Below, piece by piece: positions 32,418-49,263 of a DNA stretch of 64,000 bases (position 1 is its first letter; the number at the start of each line of letters is the position of its first letter). The notes beneath the pieces were generated by a model. It searched no databases. It was not told the DNA's origin and worked only from the letters and a program-made list of their open reading frames with translations. The position numbers and the translations under genes were made by a program. Source of the DNA: Alphaproteobacteria bacterium (GTDB taxonomy: Bacteria > Pseudomonadota > Alphaproteobacteria > UBA9219); the NCBI GenBank assembly GCA_013286365.1, contig JABDFY010000008.1, positions 199-64,198 of the forward strand. Reading direction: 5' to 3'.

Positions 32418-33647
32418 TCAAGAACCACATACTTCAATAGCCGAAGTCGCAAGCGTTTTTGCGCATTCAATCATTTCATCGATACGTACGTGTTTTTCAA
32501 CATCATCGTCATAACCTCGTGGACCGTAAAGACAGCAAGAAATTCCGGCCCTTTGTAAATGCGCCGTATCGTTTCCACAATACGAATAAGGCAATACGGC
32601 ACCGCTTTTTGATATGTCACGGCCCGTTATGTTTTTATGATTTCTTTTAACGATATTCACGATTTCTGCATCTTGCGGCACGTTGGTTGGTGGCATGTCG
32701 GCACCACCTACTTTAAAGCGCTGTGGCGGCGGATGGTGATATTCGTATTGAAAATCCGCATCACTTTCCTTAAGGGATTCAAGAAATTGCACAAATTTTT
32801 GATCTATATCTTGTGGCGTGTAATCGCCCCCATATCTAACATCGATAATAATGGTACAGTAGTCAGATAGGTTTGATGGTCCGGCAAGATCATAATCACG
32901 ACTTCGCCCACCTATGATCGAGGCGACATTGATTTTAGGTAAGCCAGGAATATCAGCATCGCTCACTTCTAAATCCATATGCGGCAATACATTAATTACC
33001 TTGATCATCTTTTGAATGGCGTCCACCCCATATTCGCTGCGACTGGTATGAATGGACTTTCCAATAGTGCTAATTGCACACTTATGAACGCCAACACATT
33101 TTGTAATTACAACATTTGTTGAATATGGTTCCGGTACGATTGCCATGTCAGTACGAATACCCGACTTCAGCATATGCAGTGTACCTTTGCCTCCCTGTAA
33201 TTCACCGACAACACAGGCAAGAATTAAATCGCCTGTCAAAGGCACCTGTGATCGTTTGACGGCAAAGGCAGCGGTTAGAAATGCGGCTACACCGGACTTC
33301 ATATTGTGAATTCCAGCGCCCCAGAGCCGATTAGCCCCTACCCTCGGCTCATAAGGATCCCACTTCCAATCTTCTGTAAGAGAGTCGTTGTCGATATGCC
33401 CATTGAACATCAGAGAACGCCCATTACCCTGACCTGCTAGACGCCCGATGACCTGCTGACGGCCGGGTGAAACTTCTTGAAGTCGAACTTCAAAACCCTC
33501 TTTCTTCAATATCTTATGTATATAAATTGCGCATTCACTTTCAGATTCAGTTGGGCTTGGAATCCGAATGAGATCCTTGGCTACAGATAAAACTTCGTCT
33601 TCGTCTAAATGGGCAAGTACTTTTTGTGCTGCGTTGACAGCGATCAA
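32418..33647 (-). CDS. M20-family metallohydrolase (ArgE/DapE/amidohydrolase-like)
   Basis: 409 aa; contains MFNGHIDND...GAGIHNMKSG...ACVVGELQGG, the typical M20 metal-ligand layout. Confidence 0.75.
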   Translation of the reverse strand: MIAVNAAQKVLAHLDEDEVLSVAKDLIRIPSPTESESECAIYIHKILKKEGFEVRLQEVSPGRQQVIGRLAGQGNGRSLMFNGHIDNDSLTEDWKWDPYEPRVGANRLWGAGIHNMKSGVAAFLTAAFAVKRSQVPLTGDLILACVVGELQGGKGTLHMLKSGIRTDMAIVPEPYSTNVVITKCVGVHKCAISTIGKSIHTSRSEYGVDAIQKMIKVINVLPHMDLEVSDADIPGLPKINVASIIGGRSRDYDLAGPSNLSDYCTIIIDVRYGGDYTPQDIDQKFVQFLESLKESDADFQYEYHHPPPQRFKVGGADMPPTNVPQDAEIVNIVKRNHKNITGRDISKSGAVLPYSYCGNDTAHLQRAGISCCLYGPRGYDDDVEKHVRIDEMIECAKTLATSAIEVCGS

Positions 33648-33649
33648 GA

Positions 33650-34180
33650 TTAAACCTTCTCGACCTGGCTATATTCAAGCTCAACAGGTGTCGCACGACC
33701 AAAGATGGAAACCGCAACCTTCAAGCGCGCTTTATCCTCATCGACTTCCTCGACAACGCCGTTGAACGATGCAAACGGACCATCGGCCACGCGCACTTGT
33801 TCGCCCACTTCGAAGGTAACGGATGGTTTCGGATGCTCGACACCTTCCAGAACCTGGTTAAGGATGCGCTGAGCTTCAGCTTCAGAAATGGGTACCGGCT
33901 TAGCCCCACTACCTAAAAAGCCGGTAACTTTGGGAGTATTCTTAACAAGGTGCCAACTTTCGTCGATCAAATCCATCTTGATCAAAACATAGCCTGGGAA
34001 GAACTTACGTTCGGCATTGACTTTAGCGCCGCGACGCACTTCCACGACTTCTTCAGTAGGCACCAGAATTTCAGAAAAATATTCTTCAAGACCTTTTTTG
34101 ATCGCTGTTTCGCGAATGGACTGAGCCACCTTTTTCTCAAAGCCTGAATATACGTGAATAACGTACCAACGATGCGTCAT
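33650..34180 (-). CDS. nusG: transcription termination/antitermination factor NusG
   Basis: Contains [14 protein letters not shown] and the KOW segment [22 protein letters not shown]. Confidence 0.96.
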
Positions 34181-34220: not shown

Positions 34221-34439
34221 TCATGAGCTCATTCCTAATATACGGCTGATAACGAACCCAAGCAGCGAGTCGACACCGAAGAAAAACACGCTCGCAATCA
34301 GCGCCATAAGTACGATGAGTGCCGTTGTTACAGCCGTTTCTTTGCGTGTCGGCCACGTAACTTTCGATATTTCGCGCCGCGTCTCGCGGGCAAATTCCAT
34401 AATACTCAATTTAGGCTTCTGACTTTCTTCAATACTCAT
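34221..34439 (-). CDS. secE: preprotein translocase subunit SecE
   Basis: 72 aa; contains EISKVTWPTRKET followed by a single TM helix. Lies between tRNA-Trp and nusG. Confidence 0.9.
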   Translation of the reverse strand: MSIEESQKPKLSIMEFARETRREISKVTWPTRKETAVTTALIVLMALIASVFFFGVDSLLGFVISRILGMSS

Positions 34440-34461: not shown

Positions 34462-34537
34462 TGGCAGGAGTGGAGGGGCTCGAACCCGCAGCCTTCGGTT
34501 TTGGAGACCGACGCTCTACCAATTGAGCTACACTCCT
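34462..34537 (-). tRNA. tRNA-Trp (anticodon CCA)
   Basis: The reverse complement folds as a cloverleaf. Acceptor AGGAGTG pairs with CACTCCT. The anticodon loop is CTCCAAA, the T-loop is TTCGAGC and the 3' CCA is encoded. There is one mismatch in the T-stem. Confidence 0.9.
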
Positions 34538-34757: not shown

Positions 34758-36425
34758 CTATTTGACCCCCTTCAAGGCAACGGCTTGCGGATGACGTTGC
34801 AGTATTTTCCCCTGCCAAGACGTTGGCTTTAAGACGCTCACATCATTATCAAAGAACCGCTCTACGTCGTTGCAGATTGATTGAACAACATTCGTCCAAT
34901 CGTGAGGTTTCAATTGGCGGTAAAGTTTCACTGTTTTGTACCAAATCGTATCTTCGCGCCCGAGGAGCCACCGCCAATCAGGATTAAAAGGTATCATTAT
35001 CCAAACCGGCAAGCCCATGGCACCTGCAAGATGTGCGGGTGCCGAATCTGCTGTGATCAAAAGATCAAGTTCCGCCAATAAGGCAGCGCTATCCGCAAAA
35101 TCGCTTAAATACGGTGTCGCATCATAAAGACCGGCGGCGAGACCAATTTTGCGCTCGAAACCAAATTGCAGTGATACGAGATGTGGCTTAGCCAAGGCAA
35201 TGAGGGGTGCGAGTGTTATGAGAGGTATCGAGCGGTTACTATCATTGAGATGCCGGGGACTGCCTGCCCATGCAAAGCCAATTTTTGGAGCCGGAATTTT
35301 GGCGAGCCGCTCACGCCAAGCTTTTCTTAATTCGCTATCAGCGTGCAAATAGGGAATATCCGCTACACGTGGATCAAAAGGAGCTCCCATACAATGCGGT
35401 AGCGCCGTATAAGATGAGCGCCTATTTATGCCTTGCGGTAAGTCTTCGGTAATACCAGCAGGTATCGTTACATTTCGGACATCGGTGGCAGGGTCTTTAT
35501 ATGCCATCAAAGGCATATCTGGCATACTTTGCCGTATCAGCCGCAGCAGATGATAAGGAAGGCGCATGGTAACCGAGCCAACGCGGTCACGCAAAATTTT
35601 TGCGTAACGCATAAAGTGCAACATGTCGCCATAACCCTGCTCACCATAAAGAATAAGATGCAATTTTTCGTCACGTTGCCCCTGCCAATCCGGCAACGGC
35701 AAACCTACTTCATGATAGGCGCTCGTGCTGGCTAGCAATTCAAGGCCGCGCTCAAAGGCGCCAGTGATGAAGGATGTATAGGCCTCACCAAATAAAGCCG
35801 TTTGACGAACCGATGGGTATTGTTGTGCTTCGCGGTAACATGGCACGGCTAAATCATAATATCCGGCATGGCATAAAATCTCTGCCCTAGTGATCATTGC
35901 CATTGGAGATTTTGGATCCAGCTGTAAAGCCTCGACAGTCTGCTCATAAGCTTCGCTAAGACAGTTAGATTGGCTAAGGCTTAAAGCGTAATAACTGCGT
36001 AGGGTAGGATTATTCGGGGCCAAAACGACTGCACGTTCAAAATGGCGGCAGGCATTCTGCCACTGATTAAGATCCATATAGAGATATCCGGCACAGTCCC
36101 AAGCTTCAGGCAAAGTAGGGTCAAGTTCGATGGCGCGGAGCGCTTCCGGTAACGCCTCTTCCGTTCGTTTGAGAGATTTTAATATGATGCCTTTGAGCGC
36201 ATAAATACGTGCTGCCTTCGGCGTTTCTTTCTCAGCGGCCTCGAGCCACGCGATCGCTTGTACCGATTGACCAAGCTTATGCGAGATTAGTCCCAACATG
36301 TACAAAGCATCTGGTTGGCGCGGTACAACAGATAGAATCTTCAAATACGCCTGAACAGATTCAGTTATGCGGTTGGCCTGCAAAAGAGCCAGTGCCGCAT
36401 CAAGCTGAAGTTGTATAGAATCCAT
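34758..36425 (-). CDS. TPR-repeat protein with C-terminal GT9 (heptosyltransferase)-like glycosyltransferase domain
   Basis: The N-terminal roughly 220 aa carry TPR-like repeats (AL..A.......P....A....G). The C-terminus reads IGFAWAGSPRH...ITADSAPAHLAGAMGLPVWIMIP, which matches the GT9-type nucleotide-sugar binding motif. Confidence 0.75.
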   Translation of the reverse strand: MDSIQLQLDAALALLQANRITESVQAYLKILSVVPRQPDALYMLGLISHKLGQSVQAIAWLEAAEKETPKAARIYALKGIILKSLKRTEEALPEALRAIELDPTLPEAWDCAGYLYMDLNQWQNACRHFERAVVLAPNNPTLRSYYALSLSQSNCLSEAYEQTVEALQLDPKSPMAMITRAEILCHAGYYDLAVPCYREAQQYPSVRQTALFGEAYTSFITGAFERGLELLASTSAYHEVGLPLPDWQGQRDEKLHLILYGEQGYGDMLHFMRYAKILRDRVGSVTMRLPYHLLRLIRQSMPDMPLMAYKDPATDVRNVTIPAGITEDLPQGINRRSSYTALPHCMGAPFDPRVADIPYLHADSELRKAWRERLAKIPAPKIGFAWAGSPRHLNDSNRSIPLITLAPLIALAKPHLVSLQFGFERKIGLAAGLYDATPYLSDFADSAALLAELDLLITADSAPAHLAGAMGLPVWIMIPFNPDWRWLLGREDTIWYKTVKLYRQLKPHDWTNVVQSICNDVERFFDNDVSVLKPTSWQGKILQRHPQAVALKGVK

Positions 36426-36803
36426 GTTGCCTAGGTAAGAGATAGATTGTCGAGACGCACGACATCATAAAAGAAGATCACACAAAACCAGAAGTATAAA
36501 AAAATTAACCTGGATCCGTCGCTAACTCTCGATTTAGTACCGTTTTTGAAAATCCAGCATGCACATATTTGGGTGCAGTCGTTGTGAAACCTGCAATTAT
36601 CACAGCCAGCACGCATGACCTGAGCTCGAAATCCATCCCTAAGGGAAGAATTCTGGTTTCAATTGGGTTTGCGGCAGCTTTAATCCAGGTCATGAGTAAT
36701 TATTGACCTTTATATATTACGGTTTAGTTTGCGAGGAGATACCTTTGTTTTTATCCAAAAACCATTGGATATGTTCAATGGCCTCATAACTTACCAGGTA
36801 ACT

Positions 36804-37772
36804 ATGTCGTCGATATCACGTTTAACTGAACTTGCATGCCTCGCCGCCTTTTTAATATTGGCGCCATACTCCTATTCTATGGCCGAGGATAGTGAACAAC
36901 TTAAAACCAAAACAGTTGCCGTAGGCGAGTTTTTTATTGATCGCCCCTATGCCTCAATGAAGGGGCCTACTAAAACAGAAAGTATCCTTTTAGATCCTTC
37001 ATCTAAAACCCCCTATTTATGGATTAAAAGTTTTTCTGTAGAAATTTTTGATGCTGATGGTAACCGTCAATCTTCTGAATATCTTTGCCATGCCTGGGCC
37101 CACTTGCCCACCAAAGGAAATCCTGAAAGCGCGCTTTTGACGATTTCAGAAGGGCTTCCGGAGATGCGATTTCCGGATGGCTATGCCATGAAAATACCTA
37201 ACACATCTGACGCAAAAATTATGTTATTGGGACAGGTGCGCAACGATAATCCTCATATCAGCAAGCACTTATCGATGAAGTTTACTCTCACTTATTTTGA
37301 CGATACGGAAGCCCAAAAGCTCGGTTTAGTTCCTTTAGTGAGTACGACCGTCAATACGGCCCCAACAGATGTCCTGCCAGGTAAGCACATCTATACTGCG
37401 CAAGTTCCTCAACATTCATTATTTATGCGTAATGGAAATATTTATTTCATCAAAATGCATTTACACCCCTACGGGCAATCGGTTGAACTTTTTGATGACA
37501 CGGCTCAAGCAACTGTATGGAAAGGAACGGCCGAAAATATTCCTGGTCGTGATGCTCTTGCAAGAACGGATGCCTATTCGGATAGCCAAGGCCTCAAGAT
37601 TCACAAGGACCATAAATACAAAGTTATAACGACTTACAATAACACATCGGGACATGTCATTGACGCCATGGGCGTTTTACGGGTTTATTTTGCCGCCTCC
37701 GCTGCCGATGAAGCCACGACTTCTCCCCGCTCTATGGATAAAACAGAAACCTCACTAGAATGTATGCCTTAA
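36804..37772 (+). CDS. secreted protein with HxH...M signature; possible distant Cu type-II monooxygenase-like fold
   Basis: Has a signal peptide (LACLAAFLILAPYSYS). Contains the motifs CHAWAHL, MHLHPYG and YNNTSGHVIDAMGVLRVYF. The functional call is tentative. The ORF track starts at 36729. Confidence 0.55.
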   Translation: MSSISRLTELACLAAFLILAPYSYSMAEDSEQLKTKTVAVGEFFIDRPYASMKGPTKTESILLDPSSKTPYLWIKSFSVEIFDADGNRQSSEYLCHAWAHLPTKGNPESALLTISEGLPEMRFPDGYAMKIPNTSDAKIMLLGQVRNDNPHISKHLSMKFTLTYFDDTEAQKLGLVPLVSTTVNTAPTDVLPGKHIYTAQVPQHSLFMRNGNIYFIKMHLHPYGQSVELFDDTAQATVWKGTAENIPGRDALARTDAYSDSQGLKIHKDHKYKVITTYNNTSGHVIDAMGVLRVYFAASAADEATTSPRSMDKTETSLECMP

Positions 37773-37791
37773 GGAAATTTATACAATTTTT

Positions 37792-38829
37792 TTACCACTC
37801 CGTTACGACACAAGCGCCACCCCCACCAGACCCGCCAGCGCCGGGTGGATTTGAAGTATTATTAGAGTTGGCACCACCACCACCGCCAGAGCCATAACCC
37901 CCTACACCCCCATTGCCGGGAACCCCACTATTATAATTAGCACCCCCAGGCCCTCCGCCTCCACCAGCATAATAAAGTCCGTTCCCCGTAGAATTCCCAT
38001 TAGGTCCATTGCCAGTGCCAGTGCTGTTCTTAGCGCCCAGTGCAAAAAAAGAATTACCCCCAAGGCTTGCATAACCATATACAGGAGAGCTATCAGCGCC
38101 TTTCCCCGAATATAAGGTGCCTGCAGGGGCTGCCCCGGCATAAACTAACGTCGTTTCTTGACCACCCGCACCACCCGTCGCAGATAAATATGAACCAAAA
38201 GTTGTCGTACCACCTGCACTGCCATTCGCATTTGCGGCACCTCCTGCACCACCGGCACCAATTGTAATCGTCACGGGGGTCGTAAGGGCACTAATTGAAA
38301 AGATTCCAATCGCATAATAGGCTGCGCCACCACCGTAATTATAGGTTTGGCTGTAGGACCCAGCAGTCCCAGCACCACCAGCCCCACCACCACCGCCACC
38401 CATACAAAAAACGCGCGCAACGTTATTGCCTGCGGCCGGGGTCCAACTATAGCTCCCGGGTGATGTATAAGAAGTTGTCGTGGCAGATGTGGATCCTGCA
38501 CCGCCAGTGGCCCCTGTAATCGTTGTCCAGCTGGAGCTATTACAGCCTTGGAAAATACTCCCATTCCATTGCAGCATGCCGGCATGCGTACTATTGCAAC
38601 TATCGGATGTGGCACCTAAAAAAAGCGCCGAACGTTGCCAAGTTGAACCATTGCATTGAAAAATCGTATCCCAATCAATGCCATTATTGGTGCCCGAGCA
38701 AGCCGAGCCAAAATTGGTCTGTTCATTATCAATCGATCCAGCCGACGAAGTAGCTATAGCGCTAGCGAAGAGAACGATTATCGATAAAAGAATTGGAAGA
38801 TTTTTTTTTAGCGAACGAAAAGTATGCAT
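37792..38829 (-). CDS. secreted Gly-rich protein, paralog 1
   Basis: Has a signal peptide and the Cys-loop N-domain (DNEQTNFGSACSGTNNGIDWDTIFQC...CNSTHAGMLQWNG). Core motifs are VFCMGGGGGGAGG and TPVTITIGAGGAGG. Ends in GACVVTEW. The ORF extends to 38859. Confidence 0.8.
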   Translation of the reverse strand: MHTFRSLKKNLPILLSIIVLFASAIATSSAGSIDNEQTNFGSACSGTNNGIDWDTIFQCNGSTWQRSALFLGATSDSCNSTHAGMLQWNGSIFQGCNSSSWTTITGATGGAGSTSATTTSYTSPGSYSWTPAAGNNVARVFCMGGGGGGAGGAGTAGSYSQTYNYGGGAAYYAIGIFSISALTTPVTITIGAGGAGGAANANGSAGGTTTFGSYLSATGGAGGQETTLVYAGAAPAGTLYSGKGADSSPVYGYASLGGNSFFALGAKNSTGTGNGPNGNSTGNGLYYAGGGGGPGGANYNSGVPGNGGVGGYGSGGGGGANSNNTSNPPGAGGSGGGGACVVTEW

Positions 38830-38837
38830 GCGGTTTT

Positions 38838-40103
38838 TCACCATTCTTTTATAACGCAAAAACCACTGCCACCACTGCCGCCATTGCCGCCTTTGCCGCT
38901 ACTTGCCGTACAAGACGAGCAATTGCCGCCTGCACCACCACCAGAGCCATAGCCACCATTGCCACCATTGCCGCCATTGTTGCAACTAGCGCCTCCACCA
39001 CCGCCACCTGTACCGGCATAAGGATTTGTCGAATTATTCCCATTGCCACCATTTGTAGCTGCACCTGTACATAACGATAGAACCGATGCTGTCGTTGTAC
39101 CTGCAGCTCCCCCGCTACCCCCAAAGAGAGAACCAGCAGCGACACCACCACCCGAAAAGCAGGCAGTACTAGCCGTAGCGTAATTAGACAAAGTGCCTCC
39201 AGCGCCCCCAGTTCCTGTATAATAACTCGATACATATGGCGCATTACCGGATGTTAAAGGTGCATCGCTGCAAGGAGGTCCTGAGTCGACATAAGCATTT
39301 ACATAGTAGTAGTACGTGTAATTTGGATATATGGCATTATCTGCACCACTCGGAACAGGTGCGGTATACCCTGCTCCCAATGGGGATGTACTCGTATTAT
39401 TTGCAGCTCCGCCATAGGCCTCTAAGTAAGTACCGAAAGTTGTGTTGCCACCAGGACTACCAAATTGACTGGCTCCGACGCCCCCCCCCGCACCAACCGC
39501 ACCAGCACCACCAGCCCCGATTGTTATCGTAACTGGCGTGGTCAGACTACTGATTACAAAAATACTCTCTGCGGAACTCCCACTTTCACCGCCGAATGCA
39601 GAATTATCTGTGTATTGACCGCCGGAATTAAAGGCCTGAGAGCCGCCACCACCACCGCTCCCCCCTCCTACACATAAGACATCAACGAGCGTACTATTCG
39701 TCTGTGGTGTCCATGTACCAGAAGCGGTATAATTCGTCACTGTCACGCCACCACTATAGCCGTTGGTAAAAAAAAGCCAATTAGACCCATTGCAACCTCG
39801 AACAGCCGCACCATCCCATCGGATCATGCCTGCATGGTTAGAATCGCAACTATCGGGACTAGACCCCAAAAAATAGGCCGATCTGTTCCATGTTGAGCTG
39901 CTGCACTGGAAAATTGTATCCCAATCGGCGCCGTTCTTTGTGCCGGAGCAAGCAGAGCCAAAATTAGTTTTTTCATTATCGATTGAGCCAGCCCATACGG
40001 CTTCTGATGCCGCAAAGTTGATAATGAGTGCGAACAAAACGATAAGAGGCGTACTGAAATGACGATAGAGACGATAGGTAAGAATATTTTTATTAAAGTT
40101 CAT
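38838..40103 (-). CDS. secreted Gly-rich protein, paralog 2
   Basis: Same architecture as paralog 1. Motifs are VLCVGGGSGGGGG and TPVTITIGAGGAG. Ends in GFCVIKEW. The ORF extends to 40148; the Met at 40103 gives a normal signal peptide. Confidence 0.8.
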   Translation of the reverse strand: MNFNKNILTYRLYRHFSTPLIVLFALIINFAASEAVWAGSIDNEKTNFGSACSGTKNGADWDTIFQCSSSTWNRSAYFLGSSPDSCDSNHAGMIRWDGAAVRGCNGSNWLFFTNGYSGGVTVTNYTASGTWTPQTNSTLVDVLCVGGGSGGGGGSQAFNSGGQYTDNSAFGGESGSSAESIFVISSLTTPVTITIGAGGAGAVGAGGGVGASQFGSPGGNTTFGTYLEAYGGAANNTSTSPLGAGYTAPVPSGADNAIYPNYTYYYYVNAYVDSGPPCSDAPLTSGNAPYVSSYYTGTGGAGGTLSNYATASTACFSGGGVAAGSLFGGSGGAAGTTTASVLSLCTGAATNGGNGNNSTNPYAGTGGGGGGASCNNGGNGGNGGYGSGGGAGGNCSSCTASSGKGGNGGSGGSGFCVIKEW

Positions 40104-40141
40104 ATTTTGATTATGAAAAAGTGGTGGCCTAAACATATTGA

Positions 40142-41464
40142 TTACCACTCAACAACTATACAGTAGCCGTTACCGCCATTGCCGCCAGCGCCACCCGTTG
40201 CGTTGGAGGCACCGCCGCCGCCGCCACCTGAACCATATTTTCCATTGCCACCTTTGCCGCCAGTACCCGAGCTGGCGCCGCCACCGCCACCGCCACCACT
40301 CCCTGAGTAAGGCGTTGATGTCACGTTTCCGTCGCTACCCGCACCGCCACCTGAGCTACCGCCATTACCTCCTGAAACTGCTGGTGTCGAACCACCATTG
40401 CTACCCGTGCTCCAGGAACTGCAACCGCTGGGATCTGGACATGTACAAGTTGGACAACCAGTACCATAAGGGGTACAAAAATTTCCCGTATTAAAGCAAG
40501 CGGCTTGGCCGGATTCGCATGTTTGGGTGTAGTAATCAAAAAATCCAGAACAGCAAATATCCATGACGGTACAAGTTTGGCTGCCCGCACCCGCACCACC
40601 GCCCGCCGTATAGTTTGTCGCATTACCTGACACATACTGCACGCCGTAATACATGCCACCCCCGCTAGCCCCAACCTGTGGACTAGATAAGTCTTCTGTA
40701 CCCGGCGTGTTGGCGGCTGCGGATATGCCTCCTCCTGATCCTCCCTGTGAAGTCGTTGCAGCGCCAAGAACTCCAGCTGACCCACCTCCTAGCGTCCCAG
40801 AGCTGCTACCGACAGTGCCAGCGCCACCCCCACCTCCACCATAAGTTGTCAAATAGGAGCCAAACGTTGTGCTGCCGCCATTACCGCCATTGTTTCCTGC
40901 ACTACCCCCTGTACCGCCGGTACCAATCGTTATTGTTACAGGTGTGCTGAGCGTTGCGATCACAAAAGTTTGTTCGAGAGCACTGGCACCACCACCTCCG
41001 CCGCCGCCGGTTGCTGTTGGATCACTGCCAGCACTACTGACACCACCACCGCCGCCACCGCCACCACCAACACAAAGAACATCCGCAAGCGTGCTGCCTC
41101 CCTGAGGTGTCCAGCTAGAAGTACTGGTAAAGGCTGTCAATTTGGAAGGCTGGGGGGAAGCCGTTCCTCCGCCTAGCGTTGTCCAACTTGTCGTACAGGC
41201 CTGAAAGGCAGAACCCGTCCATTGGATCATGCCTGCATGATTAGAATCGCAACTATCAGGCGTCGATCCTAAAAAGTAAGCCGTCCTTTGCCATGTCGAG
41301 CTGTTGCACTGAAAAATTGTATCCCAGTCGGCGCCATTATTTGTGCCGGAACAGGCGCCGCCGAAATTGGTTTGTTCATTATCAATCGGACCACTAGCCA
41401 AAGCCCCAACGCCCCAAGTGCATAGGAGCAGTATCAGAGTGCCAACAAAGACGCGGAATAACAT
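40142..41464 (-). CDS. secreted Gly-rich protein, paralog 3 (with Cys-rich insert)
   Basis: Same architecture as paralogs 1 and 2. Motifs are VLCVGGGGGGGGG and TPVTITIGTGGTGG. The insert reads CTVMDICCSGFFDYYTQTCESGQAACFNTGNFCTPYGTGCPTCTCPDPSGCSSW. Ends in GYCIVVEW. Confidence 0.8.
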   Translation of the reverse strand: MLFRVFVGTLILLLCTWGVGALASGPIDNEQTNFGGACSGTNNGADWDTIFQCNSSTWQRTAYFLGSTPDSCDSNHAGMIQWTGSAFQACTTSWTTLGGGTASPQPSKLTAFTSTSSWTPQGGSTLADVLCVGGGGGGGGGVSSAGSDPTATGGGGGGGASALEQTFVIATLSTPVTITIGTGGTGGSAGNNGGNGGSTTFGSYLTTYGGGGGGAGTVGSSSGTLGGGSAGVLGAATTSQGGSGGGISAAANTPGTEDLSSPQVGASGGGMYYGVQYVSGNATNYTAGGGAGAGSQTCTVMDICCSGFFDYYTQTCESGQAACFNTGNFCTPYGTGCPTCTCPDPSGCSSWSTGSNGGSTPAVSGGNGGSSGGGAGSDGNVTSTPYSGSGGGGGGGASSGTGGKGGNGKYGSGGGGGGASNATGGAGGNGGNGYCIVVEW

Positions 41465-41540
41465 TGAAAGACTGCCCTAATTAAGGTGGTTGGGCGTTCG
41501 CAGGGTCGCACGGTAGTTTGTCATTTTTTATCGACACCTT

Positions 41541-42614
41541 TCAAGGACGTTGCTGATTATTCGACGTTGGTTCAAGACATGATTGCAGAAAACGTGGTTT
41601 CTTGTCGTTCTCGCTCTGAATGATCAACGCCGCACATCGATCACCAGGGGCGGCAATAAGAATATCTTTTTCATCTGCTGAGGCCAAGGCGTAAACGAAA
41701 TGACTGGTTCGGGCAAATCCTGCCAAGACCTCACGCGATTCGTCGAGCGTACCAATAAAAGCCGGCATATTACGCCACATCACCGTTTGAGTATTGGGAG
41801 ATAACTGTCTTACCAATTCACGCAGCTTCGCAGAAAGTTTATTAGTTGCGGTTTTTTTAAAGCTTTGCTGAAAATTTGAGCTTACATCTTCACGCGCAGG
41901 CGCAGCTCCGAAAGGGCTTGGAAAGGGCTGAGAAAAAACCATATCTCGGGATTTAGCAACGACGTGACAAGCTTGGCAAGCGTCGATTTCATCCGTAGTA
42001 AGCTGCCCAGGTGCATGGTTTAGCATATAAAGACTATAAACCCAGCCATCGCGAGCTTTAGGATCGCCAGTTTTTTTCAGCATCACTTGAACACGCACGA
42101 TACGTCCGGGAATTAGACTGGAATCAAAAATAGGGTCGTGCGCCGCATGAGAACCGATTTTGGCGAAAACAGTTCCTTCAGGAAACGGATAAATACCTTT
42201 TGCTAGGGCGTCAGCCCCTATTTTATTAACATAGATAAATCGCAGTTCTTCGTTATCTGTTTTATAGCGCGTTGTGACTAATTCCCATTTGAGCCAAAAG
42301 TCTTTGAACAGTTTTGGATCAATATCTTGCGTCGAAGGTGAACTATCCATCCAAGATTGCAAGCGATCCAAAAAGGCCACGCCTGGCTGAGATATCGCAT
42401 GAGATTTTTCTGTCTGTGACGGTGTTTTGTTTATATTGGTATCGGATGAACTTTTTTCCTTGCTGACCTCCGGCCCCAGCGCATCATCACCATAGGCTGT
42501 TGTCTGCGCCCAAACATCTGCAGCTTGGGCGAGGCATACAACAATAATGAGACTTAGGATAATTGACCCTAATGCCCCTACACGCATTTTCACTGTCAAA
42601 TTTTTTATACACAT
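41541..42614 (-). CDS. secreted mono-haem c protein, cytochrome P460-like domain plus about 130-aa C-terminal extension (paralog 1)
   Basis: Has a signal peptide and a single CXXCH (DACQACHVV) following the beta-rich segment WELVTTRY...PFPEGTVFAKI...DGWVYS. It is about 70% identical to the 45733-46773 product over about 250 aa, by eye. Confidence 0.6.
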   Translation of the reverse strand: MCIKNLTVKMRVGALGSIILSLIIVVCLAQAADVWAQTTAYGDDALGPEVSKEKSSSDTNINKTPSQTEKSHAISQPGVAFLDRLQSWMDSSPSTQDIDPKLFKDFWLKWELVTTRYKTDNEELRFIYVNKIGADALAKGIYPFPEGTVFAKIGSHAAHDPIFDSSLIPGRIVRVQVMLKKTGDPKARDGWVYSLYMLNHAPGQLTTDEIDACQACHVVAKSRDMVFSQPFPSPFGAAPAREDVSSNFQQSFKKTATNKLSAKLRELVRQLSPNTQTVMWRNMPAFIGTLDESREVLAGFARTSHFVYALASADEKDILIAAPGDRCAALIIQSENDKKPRFLQSCLEPTSNNQQRP

Positions 42615-42623
42615 ACCGAGCCT

Positions 42624-44120
42624 TTAGGGGGCCAAGAATGGTAGATCACTTGCACTATAACGTGTGGCCGAGAATATTCTTGCCTGCATACTGAGATCGG
42701 GCTTTCTAAACGCGGCCTCGTCCACGGCCGGCAGTTGACAATCCCAAACTACTTTCTTGTCATTGTTTATTTCAAATATATGTCCATGAAGCGAATCCAA
42801 AATCATCGTATTACCATTTTGTAAGCGCTGAACATCGCCAACATATGACGTCGCAAAAGGCAACTCTGGACTGCCACTAAAATCCCACGTGACACTACGT
42901 GTCGTCGGATCATATTCCAAAATCCGTGAAAAATAAGAAGTCTCTTCTCCTTGTACTTTGTTATTAAGTACCTTGTTATTATTCTTCGTTAAACTTTCTT
43001 GTTTTCTTTCTTCGTCAGCCAATCCCTGATTATCGAGCAACAATATATGGCCATTTGCGAGAAATTGAGCGGAATGCTGTCTCTTCCATGGACCTAGAGC
43101 AAACCAAACGACGCTTTCTGTCTCCGGGTCGATGACAGCGATTGCGTTCATATCACGTAAGGAAACGAGTACTTGTCCTGCTTTGAACATAGGGAACTTG
43201 CTAGCAATCTTCGGTTCCAACTTCATGACAGAGTTTGAATGCAAAATATCCATACGCTGAAGGCCTCCCGGTTGATTAAGTAGAAATGCTAGGTACTGGA
43301 TGAGCGCCTGCCTAAATAATGGCGATCTGTCGAAGGCATTTAATATGGAAATTGTTTTCAATTCTTTGCCTTCGGGCGACAAGATGGCTATGTAATCAGC
43401 AAGTCCCTCCCCAAGCATAGGTTTATGAAAAATTAAACTCAGAGGTAGTGGCATATGATACAGAGTATAGATATTTCCCGTTTTATCGATATAGGCATTA
43501 TGGTGTGTGTTTTTATCATAAGTCCAAAGCACCTTGTCGGAACTTTTATTAAATTTAGCCATCCCATATCCTGTAACTGAACCGGTACCGGGGCATGTAT
43601 AAGTCGCCAACAAATCTCCATTGGGAAACGGAGTCGCTGATTTAATCAAGACTTTATCACCGCATACCGCACGGTTTGTAATATGCGTGGGATTGGGCCA
43701 AACACTGTCAAAAGGAATGTGCCACGTATGCACTATGTGGCCCTGCATATCGATAATATATACATTCTTGGAATAACGGAGCGTAAATATTGTGAAGCCA
43801 CCGTAAGATTGTGTGTCGTCATATTTAATTTTGGCCTGATTAATTAAAACATCTTCATTAATTAATGGCTTCTTGTCGACACTTGGACCTGGTTTTTCTT
43901 CACTTGGCTTTTCGCTTTTTATGACCGCACTGTTTTGTGCTGTCGGGATTGTTTGTGCTGTTGCGATTGTTTGTGTTGTCGGAATTATACGATGAGGCGC
44001 AAAATACTCGTACTTAGCCAAGGCGAAGCCTCCAGCCAAAATAATACACACACTTGCTATCAAGATGAGGCGCCGATACCGCCGAAGAGCAGAAGTGCAG
44101 AAGGACACTAAACGTTTCAT
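42624..44120 (-). CDS. membrane-anchored arylsulfotransferase (ASST)-like beta-propeller protein
   Basis: Has an N-terminal TM anchor (LILIASVCIILAGGF). The motifs THHNAYID, DILHSNSV and RQHSAQFLANGHILLLDNQG resemble the Arylsulfotran_2 family. The ORF extends to 44201. Confidence 0.6.
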   Translation of the reverse strand: MKRLVSFCTSALRRYRRLILIASVCIILAGGFALAKYEYFAPHRIIPTTQTIATAQTIPTAQNSAVIKSEKPSEEKPGPSVDKKPLINEDVLINQAKIKYDDTQSYGGFTIFTLRYSKNVYIIDMQGHIVHTWHIPFDSVWPNPTHITNRAVCGDKVLIKSATPFPNGDLLATYTCPGTGSVTGYGMAKFNKSSDKVLWTYDKNTHHNAYIDKTGNIYTLYHMPLPLSLIFHKPMLGEGLADYIAILSPEGKELKTISILNAFDRSPLFRQALIQYLAFLLNQPGGLQRMDILHSNSVMKLEPKIASKFPMFKAGQVLVSLRDMNAIAVIDPETESVVWFALGPWKRQHSAQFLANGHILLLDNQGLADEERKQESLTKNNNKVLNNKVQGEETSYFSRILEYDPTTRSVTWDFSGSPELPFATSYVGDVQRLQNGNTMILDSLHGHIFEINNDKKVVWDCQLPAVDEAAFRKPDLSMQARIFSATRYSASDLPFLAP

Positions 44121-44268
44121 GTTGTAACCAACTCGTCGTTGTCTTTGAGAATGGATCCCAGAACACAGAAACTGTAATGAGAAACTCTGGATAGAACTCA
44201 CTGTCCTTATAGAAGTATTCTGTCTATATCAGTTATTCGTTAGCATTCAAGTTCAAAAACCTGCATAG

Positions 44269-45687
44269 CTAGCGCGTGTAATGCTGGACGGATAACGAGA
44301 CGTAGACCACGGCAAGCAGTGAGAGAGAAATAATAAGCTCATATAGTGCGCCTCGCCGTTGCCAAACTTGTGACCAGTCACGGCTAAACAACAAGGTTGT
44401 ATAAGGTAGTATGGGTATAAAATATCGCCCTTGGATCATGGGCGTTATCGGATATTCGTCAATATAAATCGATAAAAGTATGAAGATAGCTGTCGCCATG
44501 ACCACAAGAATTAAAAGAACATTACCACCAATATTTTGGCGCGCGGTTAGTCTTTTACTTCCCGTCTTCGTATTAGAAACCGAGCTTTGCGATGAAATGG
44601 TGTTTTCAAAAACCAAAATAAAAGGTAATGCAATCATCAAAAAAGGCAAAACACCGAAAGGCTCAAACATCGCAAGGGGAGCCATCTTCCAAATAAACAA
44701 ACTTGTTATGAGTTGTCGCCAAAAATTCTCCTTCAAAATCAATTGACCTAAATCTTTGGCGACTAGATATGGTTGTTGCATCACTAAAAGGAGTGCCTTC
44801 TGAGGGTTTGAACTTGTCACGATGTTGGGAGAAAGAATATTGAAACTGTATGTTTCATTCAGGACGTGATGGACGTTGACGAGAGTAGCCAAGAAACAAA
44901 AGCCAATCACGGCACTAACAAACCAAGCTCGCCTTTGAGATGAAGCAAACTTGTTTGGTGAAATTAAAAGAATGGTAAAAATAAGGGGAAAATACACAAC
45001 TTTGCTTATCGCCAAAACAGTGCCTACCGCGGTAAAGCCCATCCCCTGCCGCCAATCAAGCGTCCGCTTCGTATAGAAAGCACGTATGAGAAGCACAAAA
45101 TAAAGACAGGCCGCTATGGTCACGACGTAATCAGGATATTGTTGAATTTCTATGATCCAAAAAGTAGGTAACAATAAAAGAACCATAATCTGCACATGGT
45201 AAACCGGCAGAAGGCGAAGAATTAAAAAACCAAACACAATCCCTAAGGACAAACAGAGCAGACGCGCCAGGTAGTAGATCGATACAGGCTTAAGATCAAA
45301 AGCCTGGCCAAGAGAGCCCGCAATAATCTGCGGGATGTAGTCAATCGCGGGATAGCGGACTACTTTCTTATCGGATACGTAAGGCTGCCGTTTTGTCGAA
45401 TCAAGAAAAATATCTTGCGCTCTAAAATTGAGATCTCTTTTAGCGTTCGTATTATTAATTCGCCGAGCCAAGAAATTATTTTCGGTTGTAACATCGGTGA
45501 ATTCAATAATACTTATGGGCAAGGTGCCGTCTTTATAGAGCGCGCTAAAGGTCAAGCCACGCAGAAAATGCTGTCCTTCGTGTGCGTTGTTTAAAGGGGC
45601 GTACGAAAAAAACAACGTCACAGCGATGAGCAATGACGCCAAAGCGTAAAGATTAGCATAGAACTTAGGTGACAAGGGAGCGTTCAC
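44269..45687 (-). CDS. polytopic membrane protein, DUF2142/GT-C-like (possible lipid-linked-sugar transferase)
   Basis: 472 aa with at least 10 hydrophobic segments. It has an early periplasmic loop after TM1 and the C-terminal motif MIQGRYFIPILPY, as in DUF2142-type proteins. Called from memory of the family, not from a search. Confidence 0.45.
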   Translation of the reverse strand: MNAPLSPKFYANLYALASLLIAVTLFFSYAPLNNAHEGQHFLRGLTFSALYKDGTLPISIIEFTDVTTENNFLARRINNTNAKRDLNFRAQDIFLDSTKRQPYVSDKKVVRYPAIDYIPQIIAGSLGQAFDLKPVSIYYLARLLCLSLGIVFGFLILRLLPVYHVQIMVLLLLPTFWIIEIQQYPDYVVTIAACLYFVLLIRAFYTKRTLDWRQGMGFTAVGTVLAISKVVYFPLIFTILLISPNKFASSQRRAWFVSAVIGFCFLATLVNVHHVLNETYSFNILSPNIVTSSNPQKALLLVMQQPYLVAKDLGQLILKENFWRQLITSLFIWKMAPLAMFEPFGVLPFLMIALPFILVFENTISSQSSVSNTKTGSKRLTARQNIGGNVLLILVVMATAIFILLSIYIDEYPITPMIQGRYFIPILPYTTLLFSRDWSQVWQRRGALYELIISLSLLAVVYVSLSVQHYTR

Positions 45688-45732
45688 AACAAAACTCGAT
45701 GAGTAACTGCGGTTAAGTAAACGTTAGATTTT

Positions 45733-46773
45733 TTATTGGTTTTGGTCGGGACAAATGCTCCATGTGCGCTGAAACTTTTTATCTTGAGCATCATCTTCAT
45801 AGAAAGAAGTTAATGCCACGCAGTTATCCTGAGGTGCAGCAATAAGAATGTTCTTCTCATCCTCTGAGCCAAGAATATAGACGGCGTTCTGTTTATGGGC
45901 AAAACCGGCTAAGACTTCCCGTGATTCACCAAGCGTGCCGATAAAGGAAGGCATAGTAAGCCGCTGCACGGATTTGGCCTCCGGCGCCAATTTTTTGACG
46001 AGATCTCGGGTATGCGATGGCAGTTGATCAATCGACATTTTTTTGAAGCTTTGCTGAAAAGAATTATCACCAACTTCGCGAGCCGGGGCTGCGCCAAAGG
46101 GGCTAGGGAAAGGTTGCGAAAAAACCATATCGCGCGATTGCGCCACAACATGACATGCCTGACAGGCATCAATTTCGTTTGTCGTCAGATGAGACGTGAG
46201 TTTTGTATCGTAAACAGGTACGAGGCTATACACCCAACCATCTCGGGCTTTAGGATCATTGGCTTTCTTGAGCATGACTTGAATGCGAATGATGGAGCCA
46301 GGAATAAGGCTGGAATCAAAAATAGGATCATGCTCAGCGTGGGCAATAATTTTGGCAAACACTGTCCCTTCCGGAAACGGGTATTGGCCTTTTGCTAAAG
46401 CTTCAGCACCAATTTTGTTGGCATAGACGAAACGTAACTGCTGACCCTCCGGCTTATAACGTGTCGTAACCAATTCCCACTTGCGCCAAAAATCTTTAAA
46501 TAATTTTGGATCGATATCTTGAGTTTCCGTGACATTATCGAACCAGTTTTGCAATGGAACAATCGAGCTGGAACTTGGCTGGGCAGCCGCGTTCGGTTCA
46601 GGTGACGTGGGATTAAGCGCATCTGGTGTGCCATCGACTTTTGAAAGGGTGACATCATAATTGTTAGAGAGGTTTGTATCCGTGTTATTCCCGGAATGGC
46701 TTAAAGTCACGAAGCCAAACGCGCTTATGAGCGCAACGACAAAAGCGAGACAAAAAGAACGACCACTTAACAT
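45733..46773 (-). CDS. secreted mono-haem c protein, cytochrome P460-like domain plus C-terminal extension (paralog 2)
   Basis: Has a signal peptide, the same CXXCH context (DACQACHVVAQSRDMVFSQPFPSPFGAAPARE) and the same C-terminal extension (IGTLGESREVLAGFA...ILIAAP). Confidence 0.6.
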   Translation of the reverse strand: MLSGRSFCLAFVVALISAFGFVTLSHSGNNTDTNLSNNYDVTLSKVDGTPDALNPTSPEPNAAAQPSSSSIVPLQNWFDNVTETQDIDPKLFKDFWRKWELVTTRYKPEGQQLRFVYANKIGAEALAKGQYPFPEGTVFAKIIAHAEHDPIFDSSLIPGSIIRIQVMLKKANDPKARDGWVYSLVPVYDTKLTSHLTTNEIDACQACHVVAQSRDMVFSQPFPSPFGAAPAREVGDNSFQQSFKKMSIDQLPSHTRDLVKKLAPEAKSVQRLTMPSFIGTLGESREVLAGFAHKQNAVYILGSEDEKNILIAAPQDNCVALTSFYEDDAQDKKFQRTWSICPDQNQ

Positions 46774-47136
46774 TGGACATTATAAAGTTGGCCGACATTA
46801 AACGGCAACTGAGCCGAACTAAAAGAACAACGAAGCCGCACGCATCCTCATTTCTGCGACAATGCACCGCCGCTTTATTTGGATAGAGAAATTGTATGGT
46901 CTATACAAGTGGTTTCAACAAAATTGAAAGCATTGGCTCATCATCATGTGTTGCGAGCCAGAAAAATAAATAAGTAGCTGAAGAATATTTGATGACAAAA
47001 GAACCACGGCAAAATTGTGCAATTTAGCACTTACTATTTTTCAAGTCTCGCCAAACAAAGCACTACATAGTTTTTTGCAGCACTTCCCATGCAATCGGTT
47101 TAAATAGAATTCGACACTGCAAAAAAAAGAAATGAA

Positions 47137-47210
<74 letters not shown>

Positions 47211-47353: not shown

Positions 47354-48007
47354 TTAGGCTCGAAGAACGGCAGTGTTGGTCGCGACCTTTTGGCCGGCTA
47401 GAGCCGCATCACGCAGCACCTCCTGACGGCTTTTGCGCGTAGGCTCCTCACCTGCAGGCTTTGGCCATGCATCTCTATATTCCCCCAGACGAGGAGCTTC
47501 ATGTTCTCTGATCCTTCTTACTAGGGTTTGCCCCACGTGAGCTTGACTTACCAGAGCTTGCCCTGGCGGAAGTCTTTCGAGCCCCAGCCGTTCTTCAAGA
47601 CTGGCAACCGGTACGGCTTCACCCTTGGCTGCGTCTTCAGCTGCATGTTCCGCTCGCATGAGCAAAATTGTTTCTACGATTTTATCGACCGTGATACCCC
47701 TTGGGTATCCCTTATCTTCTTTCAATTGCTGCGCAAATTCCTGTAGGGTTGGTTCTCCAGGTGCCCGTGCGGCATTAGCTTTTTCCAAAGCATCAGCAGG
47801 AAGTGTAAAGGCTTCCCTTGCTGCCTTATGCTCTGCCAAGATGTGTGCTTGAAGCCGGCGTCTATTTTTTGCATCTTCAGCCGTGGCTTCTGCCGCTTCG
47901 CGTGCCGTTCGCTGGTCTTTTGTCTCTTTAAGGAACCGAAACCCTACCGACGTATTGACGCGGTTGGGACGCGTGTATCTTCTGTCTCGACTACGGCCAA
48001 ATGACAT
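47354..48007 (-). CDS. hypothetical protein (217 aa), Ala/Glu/Arg-rich
   Basis: Intact ORF, visibly more GC-rich than its surroundings, with no recognisable motif. Confidence 0.45.
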   Translation of the reverse strand: MSFGRSRDRRYTRPNRVNTSVGFRFLKETKDQRTAREAAEATAEDAKNRRRLQAHILAEHKAAREAFTLPADALEKANAARAPGEPTLQEFAQQLKEDKGYPRGITVDKIVETILLMRAEHAAEDAAKGEAVPVASLEERLGLERLPPGQALVSQAHVGQTLVRRIREHEAPRLGEYRDAWPKPAGEEPTRKSRQEVLRDAALAGQKVATNTAVLRA

Positions 48008-48237: not shown

Positions 48238-49263
48238 TCATTGGCGGGAGCGTGTCTCTTGCCAATCAAGATATTGGTCGATCAATCCTGTCGCCGTCAG
48301 AGGATCCGTTTCAGGAAGCACGCGCGATGGGTTTGGAGTCCAGAATTCTATGACAGCAGCATCAGGGAGTGGCCAATTTCCGCTCTCAAATTGCTTAAAA
48401 TGAGAGACGGCACTCGCTATCCAAGCGCTATCTGTTTTGTCTTGCCCATTGCCGTTATAGATAATTTGTAAGGGTATACCCTTGGCGCGCAGAAGCCGAG
48501 CTAGCGCCGGCATATTCTCGGCAAACCTTTTAGTCCACCAGGCGTCGATACGAAAGAACGCCAATTTTTCACCAGTCGCCGCTTCATAAGAATCAAACCA
48601 TGTAGATAGATCGGCGAGCCATACGCCGTTCTTGAACCATGGATCGTTGTCCGCGAATGACATAGGCTCGACATCACCAAATTTTACGCCAGGATACACA
48701 GAGCGGACCTGGTGGACTGTATTGGCAACATCTCGAGCTATTTCGGCAATTGAGGCGTGGCAACCATGCTTGCCATCCGGCGATCCAAAGGCGTGCCCAA
48801 AATAAAGCGGTTCATCCATACCGAAGAACTCCGCATCAGCCCCGAGAGCCTTCGCTCGCTTTGCTACCGCAAGCGGCTGTGGTCCGCCATATCCTTCCAC
48901 GTGATAGGCGCAATTGGTGGGGCCCCGTTGCCCTGGTGCTGTTAATGGCTCTATCCCGATTTCGAGATTGATATGACGGCGCTTTAGATCGCTGAACATA
49001 TTCCGTAAATCCATCTCGGCTATAAAGTCTGTTTGAGGTTGGCCTAATATTGTATGACCTGAGATTTCAAACACCTTCACATGTGCAGCCGCACGCTGCC
49101 AAGGTGAATTCGGCTGAAACAAAGCCATATAGTCCTTCGGCCCACTGCTGGCAGACCATGGTGAAAACCACACTTCTTGCGCCGTAGCGCCTCTTGCCGT
49201 AAGCACACCAAAAGCTAGTAAAGCTAAGACAAGCTGCAAGTGACGCAACAAACGATTGTACAT
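48238..49263 (-). CDS. hypothetical secreted protein (341 aa)
   Basis: Has a signal peptide (LVLALLAFGVLTARGATAQ). No family recognised. Confidence 0.55.
   Translation of the reverse strand: MYNRLLRHLQLVLALLAFGVLTARGATAQEVWFSPWSASSGPKDYMALFQPNSPWQRAAAHVKVFEISGHTILGQPQTDFIAEMDLRNMFSDLKRRHINLEIGIEPLTAPGQRGPTNCAYHVEGYGGPQPLAVAKRAKALGADAEFFGMDEPLYFGHAFGSPDGKHGCHASIAEIARDVANTVHQVRSVYPGVKFGDVEPMSFADNDPWFKNGVWLADLSTWFDSYEAATGEKLAFFRIDAWWTKRFAENMPALARLLRAKGIPLQIIYNGNGQDKTDSAWIASAVSHFKQFESGNWPLPDAAVIEFWTPNPSRVLPETDPLTATGLIDQYLDWQETRSRQ

Follow-up and report, generated by a model that had tools for sequence, protein, structure and literature searches.

What function should be ascribed to a block of genes in which two haem proteins, two putative transferases and three glycine-rich secreted proteins are encoded side by side? 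We addressed this question for an accessory block of ~10 kb (36804-46773) in an uncultured alphaproteobacterium of the UBA9219 lineage (assembly GCA_013286365.1, contig JABDFY010000008.1, positions 199 to 64,198 of the forward strand); 'the window' hereafter denotes the whole stretch of 64,000 nt that was analysed. An initial annotation of this DNA had grouped nine genes into one system that exports low-complexity proteins and modifies them covalently. The locus proved real and unusual, but that interpretation is supported only in part, a single modification pathway being improbable. The reading we favour, tentatively and at a little short of an even chance, is that of a lineage-specific accessory envelope or surface-protein locus, in which three tail-fibre-type adhesins are accompanied by dedicated partners, the cytochrome P460-like haem proteins (P460L). 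To our knowledge, cytochromes P460 have been described only in nitrogen-cycle bacteria, as proteins that oxidise hydroxylamine or bind ligands, their role in non-nitrifiers being unexplained, and our literature search found no paper connecting P460 proteins with adhesins or fibres.

The evidence that carries this reading comes from the neighbours of P460L genes in other contigs. In four arrangement types, including that of the window, the P460L gene lies 0-86 nt from a gene for a large exported protein on the same strand. The first type (contigs L002/L003, L004, L005/L006, L009 and L010) comprises a clade in which the P460L gene is found 0-26 nt downstream of, or overlapping, a giant fibre gene that ends in a Peptidase_S74 chaperone domain, and is followed by an AMP-binding ligase gene and then a small open reading frame (ORF); identities within the clade are 73-92% for the AMP-binding genes and 47-59% for the P460L genes. 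In the second type, the P460L gene is located 9 nt (L011) or 86 nt (L012) downstream of a gene for a secreted DUF1554-repeat protein, and in the third it is 26 nt upstream of a DUF7948/SBBP repeat protein gene (L016). The fourth is that of the window, where the second P460L copy (P460L2) stands beside the Gly-rich trio. The DUF1554 adhesin of L011 (1286 aa) shares modules with the proteins of two other arrangements, as it opens with the four-Cys module of the Gly-rich proteins of the window (C-x4-[AK]G-x-[ILMT]-[RQ]-[YWF]-[NTD] ... C-x1-2-[ST]-x-W, all four Cys aligning; tblastn of the Gly-rich N-terminal module against the adhesin, 3.5e-5 for paralogue 2 and 2e-4) and also has a fibre repeat in common with the S74 giants. 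P460L sequences from the four types are 38-60% identical to one another. The link of P460L to exported surface proteins is real and recurs across arrangement types, and it is the only linkage of the locus that recurs.

Several further features of the S74 clade were observed. The stop codon of the P460L gene overlaps the start of the AMP-binding ligase gene (L004 4201-7367; L005 2965-6203; L008, L009 and L010), which suggests translational coupling, and the small ORF after the AMP-binding gene is conserved, at 107-136 aa. The fibre proteins carry a hydrophobic helix at their end, after the S74 chaperone domain (L005 205-2964; also L002 and L004), and in that of L005 a signal peptide is not obvious at the N-terminus, which is unusual for a fibre that is exported.

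We then considered what kind of haem protein P460L might be. Both copies in the window match the Pfam family Cytochrome_P460 (E 5e-20 and 72.5 bits for copy 1, E 9e-21 and 75 bits for copy 2; cut-off 27), and they are 55-64% identical to each other (64% over 79% of the length of copy 2). The family is rare, consisting of 22 clusters (90% identity) among 5.8 billion, and profile scans retrieved 3 loci in 185,579 species genomes and 3 in the metagenome set, mostly short. It is absent from viral contigs, and tblastn against plasmids returned generic P460-domain matches only, at most 33% identical and without the additional domain described here. All members share a signal peptide, a disordered linker, the P460 domain and a conserved C-terminal alpha/beta domain of ~110 aa. 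A model of P460L1 made from the family alignment with AlphaFold 2 (AF2; pLDDT 72 overall, ~85-90 in both domains) matched the cytochrome P460 of M. capsulatus (McP460; 6hiu) in Foldseek (E 1.6e-8, TMt 0.74).

The haem site is conserved in part. The CxxCH motif (C204, C207, H208) is invariant in all 22 members, and in a profile alignment to 6hiu the invariant K141 and R114 align with the cross-link Lys78 and the capping Arg50 of McP460, respectively. An invariant Gln (Q165) occupies the position of Asp102, such that the distal carboxylate is absent; CxxCH and the cross-link Lys are both kept in P460L2. Lys78 of McP460 forms the cross-link to haem, the carboxylate of Glu96 in NeP460 or Asp102 in McP460 is needed if hydroxylamine (NH2OH) is to be oxidised, and P460 proteins without it do not oxidise NH2OH (PMC11928373, Table 2 therein). 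Because Gln stands for this required carboxylate, the P460L proteins are probably not hydroxylamine oxidases, yet their residues suggest that they are probably competent to form haem P460. The haem, which looks cross-link-competent, would then provide a redox or small-ligand site. P460L resembles the cytochromes P460 and c'-beta (PMC11928373; 6hiu) in fold, CxxCH, cross-link Lys and capping Arg, but differs from them in the Gln in place of Asp102/Glu96, the extra C-terminal domain and the long N-terminal linker, and it is found among surface proteins instead of genes of nitrogen metabolism. The C-terminal domain would most likely bind the surface proteins, and P460L as a whole may be their dedicated partner, as suggested by gene adjacency.

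The presumed cargo consists of three tandem, diverging Gly-rich paralogues of the adhesin or receptor-binding type, 345-440 aa long and ~50% identical to one another in a paralogue alignment. The initial annotation had taken them for low-complexity substrates, a description that does not hold, as they are made up of folded tail-fibre-type domains and a conserved Cys module. The Pfam family Gly_rich_2 (PF21722; cut-off 24.3 bits) matched paralogues 1 and 3 at 43.4-43.9 bits (E 5e-11 and 4e-11, respectively), with paralogue 2 just under the cut-off (E 6e-5, 23.6 bits). All three matched phrog_863 (1.5e-17, 7e-15 and 2e-21 for paralogues 1, 2 and 3), and there were additional matches to the PHROG tail-fibre families phrog_6202 (paralogue 1), phrog_2295 and phrog_454 (tail fibre; both paralogue 3). 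The tail-fibre family matches span 150-260 residues of the Gly-rich part. From the N-terminus, each protein has a signal peptide, a near-invariant four-Cys module of ~75 aa, a variable middle and Gly blocks, and it ends in C-x-V/I-x-E-W (CxVxEW in paralogue 1). The Gly blocks are conserved and flank variable inserts. Given the signal peptide, the four-Cys module and the tail-fibre family match, these look like cellular, exported proteins of the adhesin or receptor-binding type, with the four-Cys module probably disulfide-bonded. Pfam detects no shaft or S74 domain in them. A homologue search started from one paralogue was dominated by low-complexity words; it returned weak Gly_rich_2 matches only and missed the other paralogues. 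Paralogue 1 also contains, at residues ~320-375, an insert with ~14 Cys (…CTVMDICCSGFFDYYTQTCESGQAACFNTGNFCTPYGTGCPTCTCPDPSGC…) that is absent from paralogues 2 and 3.

The closest architectural analogue of the Gly-rich proteins appears to be the mosaic adhesive trimer (MAT) fibre family of Bdellovibrio bacteriovorus (PMC10769870). The likeness is one of architecture only: each family combines a signal peptide with an invariant N-terminal domain and a variable phage-like tip, and each has several paralogues. MAT fibres include S74 and non-S74 types, as do the proteins linked to P460L, which are likewise mosaic (L011). Compared with MAT fibres, the proteins of the window are short and lack a long beta-helix or S74 domain, and no P460-like partner has been reported for MAT fibres (PMC10769870). 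The authors of that study themselves point to the missing partner of the N-terminal domain of MAT fibres (PMC10769870). A second likeness is to the phage tail-fibre adhesins of the gp38 type (PMC3157838, PMC12032242), in which conserved Gly-rich blocks also alternate with variable segments. Unlike the gp38-type, Gly_rich_2 and phrog_863 proteins of phages, those of the window are encoded by cellular genes, have Sec signal peptides and carry an added Cys-rich N-terminal module; they also differ from phage tail-fibre adhesins in having no phage neighbours, no BLAST-level phage match and no GP38 hit.

These likenesses raise the possibility that the tail-fibre genes are what is left of a degraded prophage or tailocin, which would account for the PHROG tail-fibre matches as well as for the S74 chaperone domains in P460L-linked fibre proteins of relatives. 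We regard this as very improbable. Phage genes are missing from the vicinity of the Gly-rich genes, as are an integrase and att-like repeats; the Gly-rich proteins possess signal peptides, and all three paralogues are intact. Neither tblastn against 50,697 phage records nor a search of viral contigs retrieved relatives of the Gly-rich proteins, and Pfam gave no GP38 match to them at E <= 0.1. A prophage remnant was rejected for want of hallmark genes.

The features of the locus are collected in the table. All nine ORFs of the initial annotation were recovered at the coordinates given there, seven of them co-directional on the minus strand, and both flanking tRNAs were reproduced with ARAGORN and Rfam. 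Pfam returned the same family calls (P460 twice, DUF2142, ASST, Gly_rich_2 three times and a tetratricopeptide repeat (TPR) protein with a weak GT9 match), an N-terminal hydrophobic signal or anchor segment in every product but the TPR protein agrees with the extracytoplasmic location proposed earlier, and no known pathway in Pfam, NCBIfam or PHROG searches corresponds to the gene set, as had been supposed.

Table. Features of the accessory block and its boundaries in the window
Feature	Coordinates	Strand	Family match or remark
P460-like haem protein, copy 1 (P460L1)	45733-46773	-	Pfam PF16694; first gene of the co-directional run
DUF2142 polytopic membrane protein, candidate GT-C-type glycosyltransferase	44269-45687	-	Pfam PF09913
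ASST-type (3'-phosphoadenosine-5'-phosphosulfate (PAPS)-independent) sulfotransferase-like beta-propeller	42624-44120	-	Pfam PF14269, PF05935
P460-like haem protein, copy 2 (P460L2)	41541-42614	-	PF16694; immediately upstream of the Gly-rich trio
Gly-rich paralogue 1	40142-41464	-	Pfam PF21722, phrog_863, phrog_6202
Gly-rich paralogue 2	38838-40103	-	PF21722 (below cut-off), phrog_863
Gly-rich paralogue 3	37792-38829	-	PF21722, phrog_863, phrog_2295, phrog_454; last gene of the run
Convergent secreted protein, uncharacterised family with conserved His/Met	36804-37772	+	Family alignment
Cytoplasmic TPR protein with GT9-like C-terminal domain	34758-36425	-	Pfam TPR and sub-threshold GT9
Non-coding region, 363 nt, tRNA-Gly to P460L1	46774-47136	-	Likely promoter region of the run
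tRNA-Gly(UCC)	47137-47210	-	ARAGORN and Rfam; distal boundary
tRNA-Trp(CCA)	34462-34537	-	ARAGORN and Rfam; proximal boundary
secE	34221-34439		Next after tRNA-Trp
nusG	33650-34180		Beyond secE

According to which start codon is taken, neighbouring genes in the seven-gene run overlap or are separated by gaps of ~9 to 145 nt, and a scan of the region found no terminator-like sites inside these gaps. The non-coding region upstream of P460L1 contains two sigma-70-like matches (10/12 positions each, at 46918-46891 and 46808-46779), while the total of such matches in the region shows no excess over shuffles. As most of the window is encoded on the minus strand, co-directionality is weak evidence for an operon; it is plausible that the seven genes form one and would be co-transcribed.

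In this run, the DUF2142 and ASST-like genes sit between the two P460L genes. The ASST-like protein matches PF14269 (Arylsulfotran_2; E 2e-22, 80.8 bits against a cut-off of 27) and PF05935 (Arylsulfotrans; 1e-7, 31.9 bits against 24.2). Its family profile matches sulfotransferases of solved structure, 9kf6 at 2e-8 and the AssT of E. coli (3elq) at 1e-4, and phmmer gave no match of the protein itself to E. coli AssT, the identity being too low. In the profile alignment, the invariant Q348-H349 of the family aligns with Q435-H436 of 3elq, His436 being the catalytic histidine of EcAST (PMC13426309). H206 and H294-x-N296 are also invariant in the family, and R322 nearly so; this pattern would fit the remaining active-site residues of AssT (His252, His356, Asn358 and Arg374), but HMMER left the two sets unaligned. 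The protein is thus like E. coli AssT (3elq; PMC13426309) in its beta-propeller family, its catalytic His (His436 = H349) and its extracytoplasmic location, but it is anchored in the membrane by an N-terminal helix (residues 19-37), followed by a repeat linker, lacks the N-terminal beta-sandwich and has no dsbL/dsbI gene adjacent to it in the window. Within the gene, an 18-nt unit repeated three times (43934-43987) encodes a linker of the PTAQTI type just past the anchor.

The DUF2142 protein (PF09913, E 5e-17, 62.3 bits against a cut-off of 30.1) has 8-9 hydrophobic 19-mer segments and is predicted to be polytopic; it has no relatives in the Protein Data Bank (PDB), and tblastn found none in plasmids. 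DUF2142 proteins occur in Gram-positive loci for rhamnose cell-wall polysaccharides (PMC9746298). The protein of the window belongs to the same Pfam family as these and is likewise polytopic, but its host is Gram-negative and there are no GT2, flippase or sugar-nucleotide genes alongside. Genes for a GT2/polyprenyl-phosphate-sugar synthase or a flippase were found neither among the nine locus genes nor in the scanned flanks, and are possibly located elsewhere. The DUF2142 and ASST-like proteins would probably glycosylate and sulfate adhesins or envelope glycans on the periplasmic side.

Outside the window, the ASST-like family keeps different company. Its closest homologues are 35-42% identical, and in three independent contigs (L019 2117-7462; L020 6152-10591; JGI 3300050046 contig) arrays of 2-3 paralogues, accompanied by a Sulfotransfer_3 gene and a small ORF, lie next to kdpABC. 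Other homologues adjoin an EptA-like gene or lie behind two uncharacterised membrane-protein genes. The arrays with Sulfotransfer_3 beside kdp may represent a conserved sulfation module.

The convergent gene next to paralogue 3 had been likened to copper monooxygenases. Its product has no match in Pfam, NCBIfam, PHROG or PDB sequences, 38 members of its family gave no Pfam match at E <= 0.1, and a family profile search of all PDB sequences returned no PHM or DBH, so this call is without support from Pfam or the PDB-sequence profile search. The family alignment (587 representatives) has near-invariant C95, H96, H214, H219, H221, H270 and M289. The pattern of a CuM site (HxH...M) is matched in outline by H219-x-H221 with M289; in the N-terminal half, C95-H96 alone is conserved, and the HH...H of a CuH site is absent. 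The HxHxxG ... DxM sequence presumably resembles the PHM motif, a likeness on which no claim here rests. A single-sequence AF2 model was unusable (pLDDT 42), and tblastn against plasmids found nothing. Among the long members of the family, 6 of 10 are fused to a prolyl isomerase (cyclophilin or FKBP), which hints that the family acts on proteins; other fusions involve HTTM, AhpC/TSA and VanZ domains, and the members noted were P0086, P0114, P0144, P0157, P0163 and P0207. The convergent gene is an uncertain member of the locus.

With these results, the proposal that all nine genes serve one pathway can be weighed. It holds that low-complexity fibre or matrix substrates are exported and then glycosylated (DUF2142, TPR/GT9), sulfated (ASST) and oxidatively cross-linked (both haem proteins, with a Cu monooxygenase). 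Several points are in its favour: the co-directional genes are closely spaced, with no terminator-like site between them, all products but the TPR protein face the periplasm, the catalytic His of the ASST-like protein is intact, and the family of the convergent protein is repeatedly fused to prolyl isomerases, which suggests action on proteins. The Gly-rich proteins also offer possible acceptors in their Tyr (3.0-5.2%) and Ser (12.2-12.6%) residues. The supposed substrates, however, match folded tail-fibre domains, P460L lacks the carboxylate for known P460 oxidation chemistry, the Cu-monooxygenase assignment has found no support, the GT-C-like gene has no polyprenyl-phosphate-sugar synthase or flippase gene alongside and, as set out below, a relative without the locus has the TPR/GT9 gene at the corresponding site. 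Moreover, the enzyme genes are not beside P460L or Gly-rich genes in any other context sampled. The expectation that these families would co-occur elsewhere was borne out for P460L and exported surface proteins but not for ASST or DUF2142 with P460L or Gly-rich genes; its enzyme part fails because the sampled ASST homologues never neighbour the other families of the locus. We consider a single nine-gene pathway improbable, and covalent modification of the Gly-rich proteins would be conjecture.

The same contexts favour a patchwork of unrelated modules, in which an adhesin with P460L, a DUF2142/ASST pair acting on lipopolysaccharide or other glycans and an independent convergent gene have come to lie together at a rearrangement-prone spot, and in which P460L would be a haem protein for nitric oxide (NO) or another small ligand without any tie to adhesins. 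ASST homologues are found with sulfotransferase, kdp or EptA-like genes, which are contexts of the envelope or of sulfur; the P460L copies, diverged to 55-64% identity, stand on either side of the enzyme pair, as though it had been inserted between them; this lineage has a scrambled gene order around nusG and the tRNAs; and NO is a ligand of generic P460 and c'-beta proteins (PMC11928373). Against such a patchwork, the adjacency of P460L to genes for large exported proteins recurs in four types at only 38-60% identity, and at several P460L junctions the start and stop codons lie close together or overlap. Together, recurrence and tight junctions point to a specific link, if only for P460L and the adhesins. 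A patchwork is somewhat unlikely in our view, though a serious contender.

The reading of the block as a surface-protein locus with dedicated P460L partners has its own difficulties, and the following points weigh against it. The S74-linked cases count as approximately one observation, as they come from one clade with conserved synteny, and in one contig (L017) the P460L gene is preceded by an unrelated ORF, with no fibre gene. Gene order varies: P460L is upstream of the large gene in the window and in L016, but downstream in most relatives. The C-terminal domain has no significant structural match in the PDB or BFVD, and hence nothing that suggests binding. No P460L relative examined has a DUF2142 or ASST gene alongside, ASST-like homologues in five contexts are never beside DUF2142, P460L or Gly-rich genes, and the full gene combination was seen in one contig only. 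Counts of promoter-like and terminator-like sites in the region are not above those of shuffled sequence, and the locus contains no genes for outer-membrane secretion or anchoring, surface exposure being something we infer.

How the block came to lie where it does was addressed by comparison with a relative represented by contigs L021/L022, whose NusG and SecY are 87% and 86% identical to those of the window. The gene order there is tRNA-Gly(UCC), TPR gene, tRNA-Trp, secE, nusG, and the two tRNAs are 2.3 kb apart, compared with 12.6 kb in the window. The TPR protein of L021 has the same architecture as that of the window, lies beside tRNA-Trp and is 29% identical to it over residues 19-524; in the window protein, the TPR matches are strong and the GT9 match (19.6 bits) falls under the cut-off of 22. 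Since a counterpart occupies the same place in a relative without the locus, the TPR/GT9 gene, formerly counted as part of the locus, was left out of the accessory block and probably belongs to the resident surroundings of tRNA-Trp/secE. The remaining eight genes are accessory, as L021/L022 has only the TPR gene between the two tRNAs.

The initial annotation had gone further and described an insertion into a normally contiguous tRNA array. Accessory status is upheld by the comparison with L021/L022, but the hallmarks of insertion are missing: there are no integrase, recombinase or transposase genes among the ORFs of the locus and scanned flanks, and a repeat search found no att-like or flanking direct repeats and no notable inverted repeats. 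A tRNA-integrase island was rejected in the absence of hallmark genes. GC content at third codon positions (GC3) is slightly low at most, at 0.38-0.45 in the locus and 0.37-0.53 in the flanking genes. A simple insertion is further weakened by differences between the window and L021/L022: tRNA-Gly and the TPR gene are oriented differently, synteny is lost beyond tRNA-Gly, and other genes lie downstream of nusG. As for the array, the order tRNA-Trp/secE/nusG was found as described, but contiguity is weaker, two ORFans being present between tRNA-Tyr and tRNA-Gly and an M20 peptidase gene standing after nusG instead of rplK. The region is a rearrangement-prone spot and not a demonstrable insertion.

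Other observations concern the surroundings of the block. The neighbour of nusG is an M20 peptidase gene here (window 32418-34180) and secY-adk in the relative (L021 10001-12844), and neither genome has rplK or rplKAJL-rpoBC after nusG; this lineage has the classical operons for transcription and ribosomes in scrambled form. Two ORFans (47354-48007 and 48238-49263) without Pfam or PHROG match separate tRNA-Gly from tRNA-Tyr; a signal peptide is present in one of them and absent from the other, which is charged and Ala-rich. Both may be additional accessory genes carried at this site.

Taken as a surface-protein locus, the block would encode adhesins together with a haem-protein partner that is both novel and recurrent, a view that rests on gene neighbourhood in uncultured organisms. 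A bolder form of this view, which we think unlikely, is that the two-domain P460L represents a functional class that is new for the P460 fold, serving adhesins through anchoring, oxidative maturation or cross-linking, or NO- or redox-gated display, and that the adhesins are here also sulfated and glycosylated by the ASST-like and DUF2142 proteins. If the ASST-like and GT-C-like enzymes do act on the Gly-rich proteins, the locus would provide an example of bacterial periplasmic protein sulfation. The genetic tie of a rare two-domain P460 branch to exported adhesins or fibres in several uncultured Proteobacteria suggests a concrete, testable role for this branch, and makes P460L a candidate for the missing partner of the conserved N-terminal modules in phage-like bacterial fibres.

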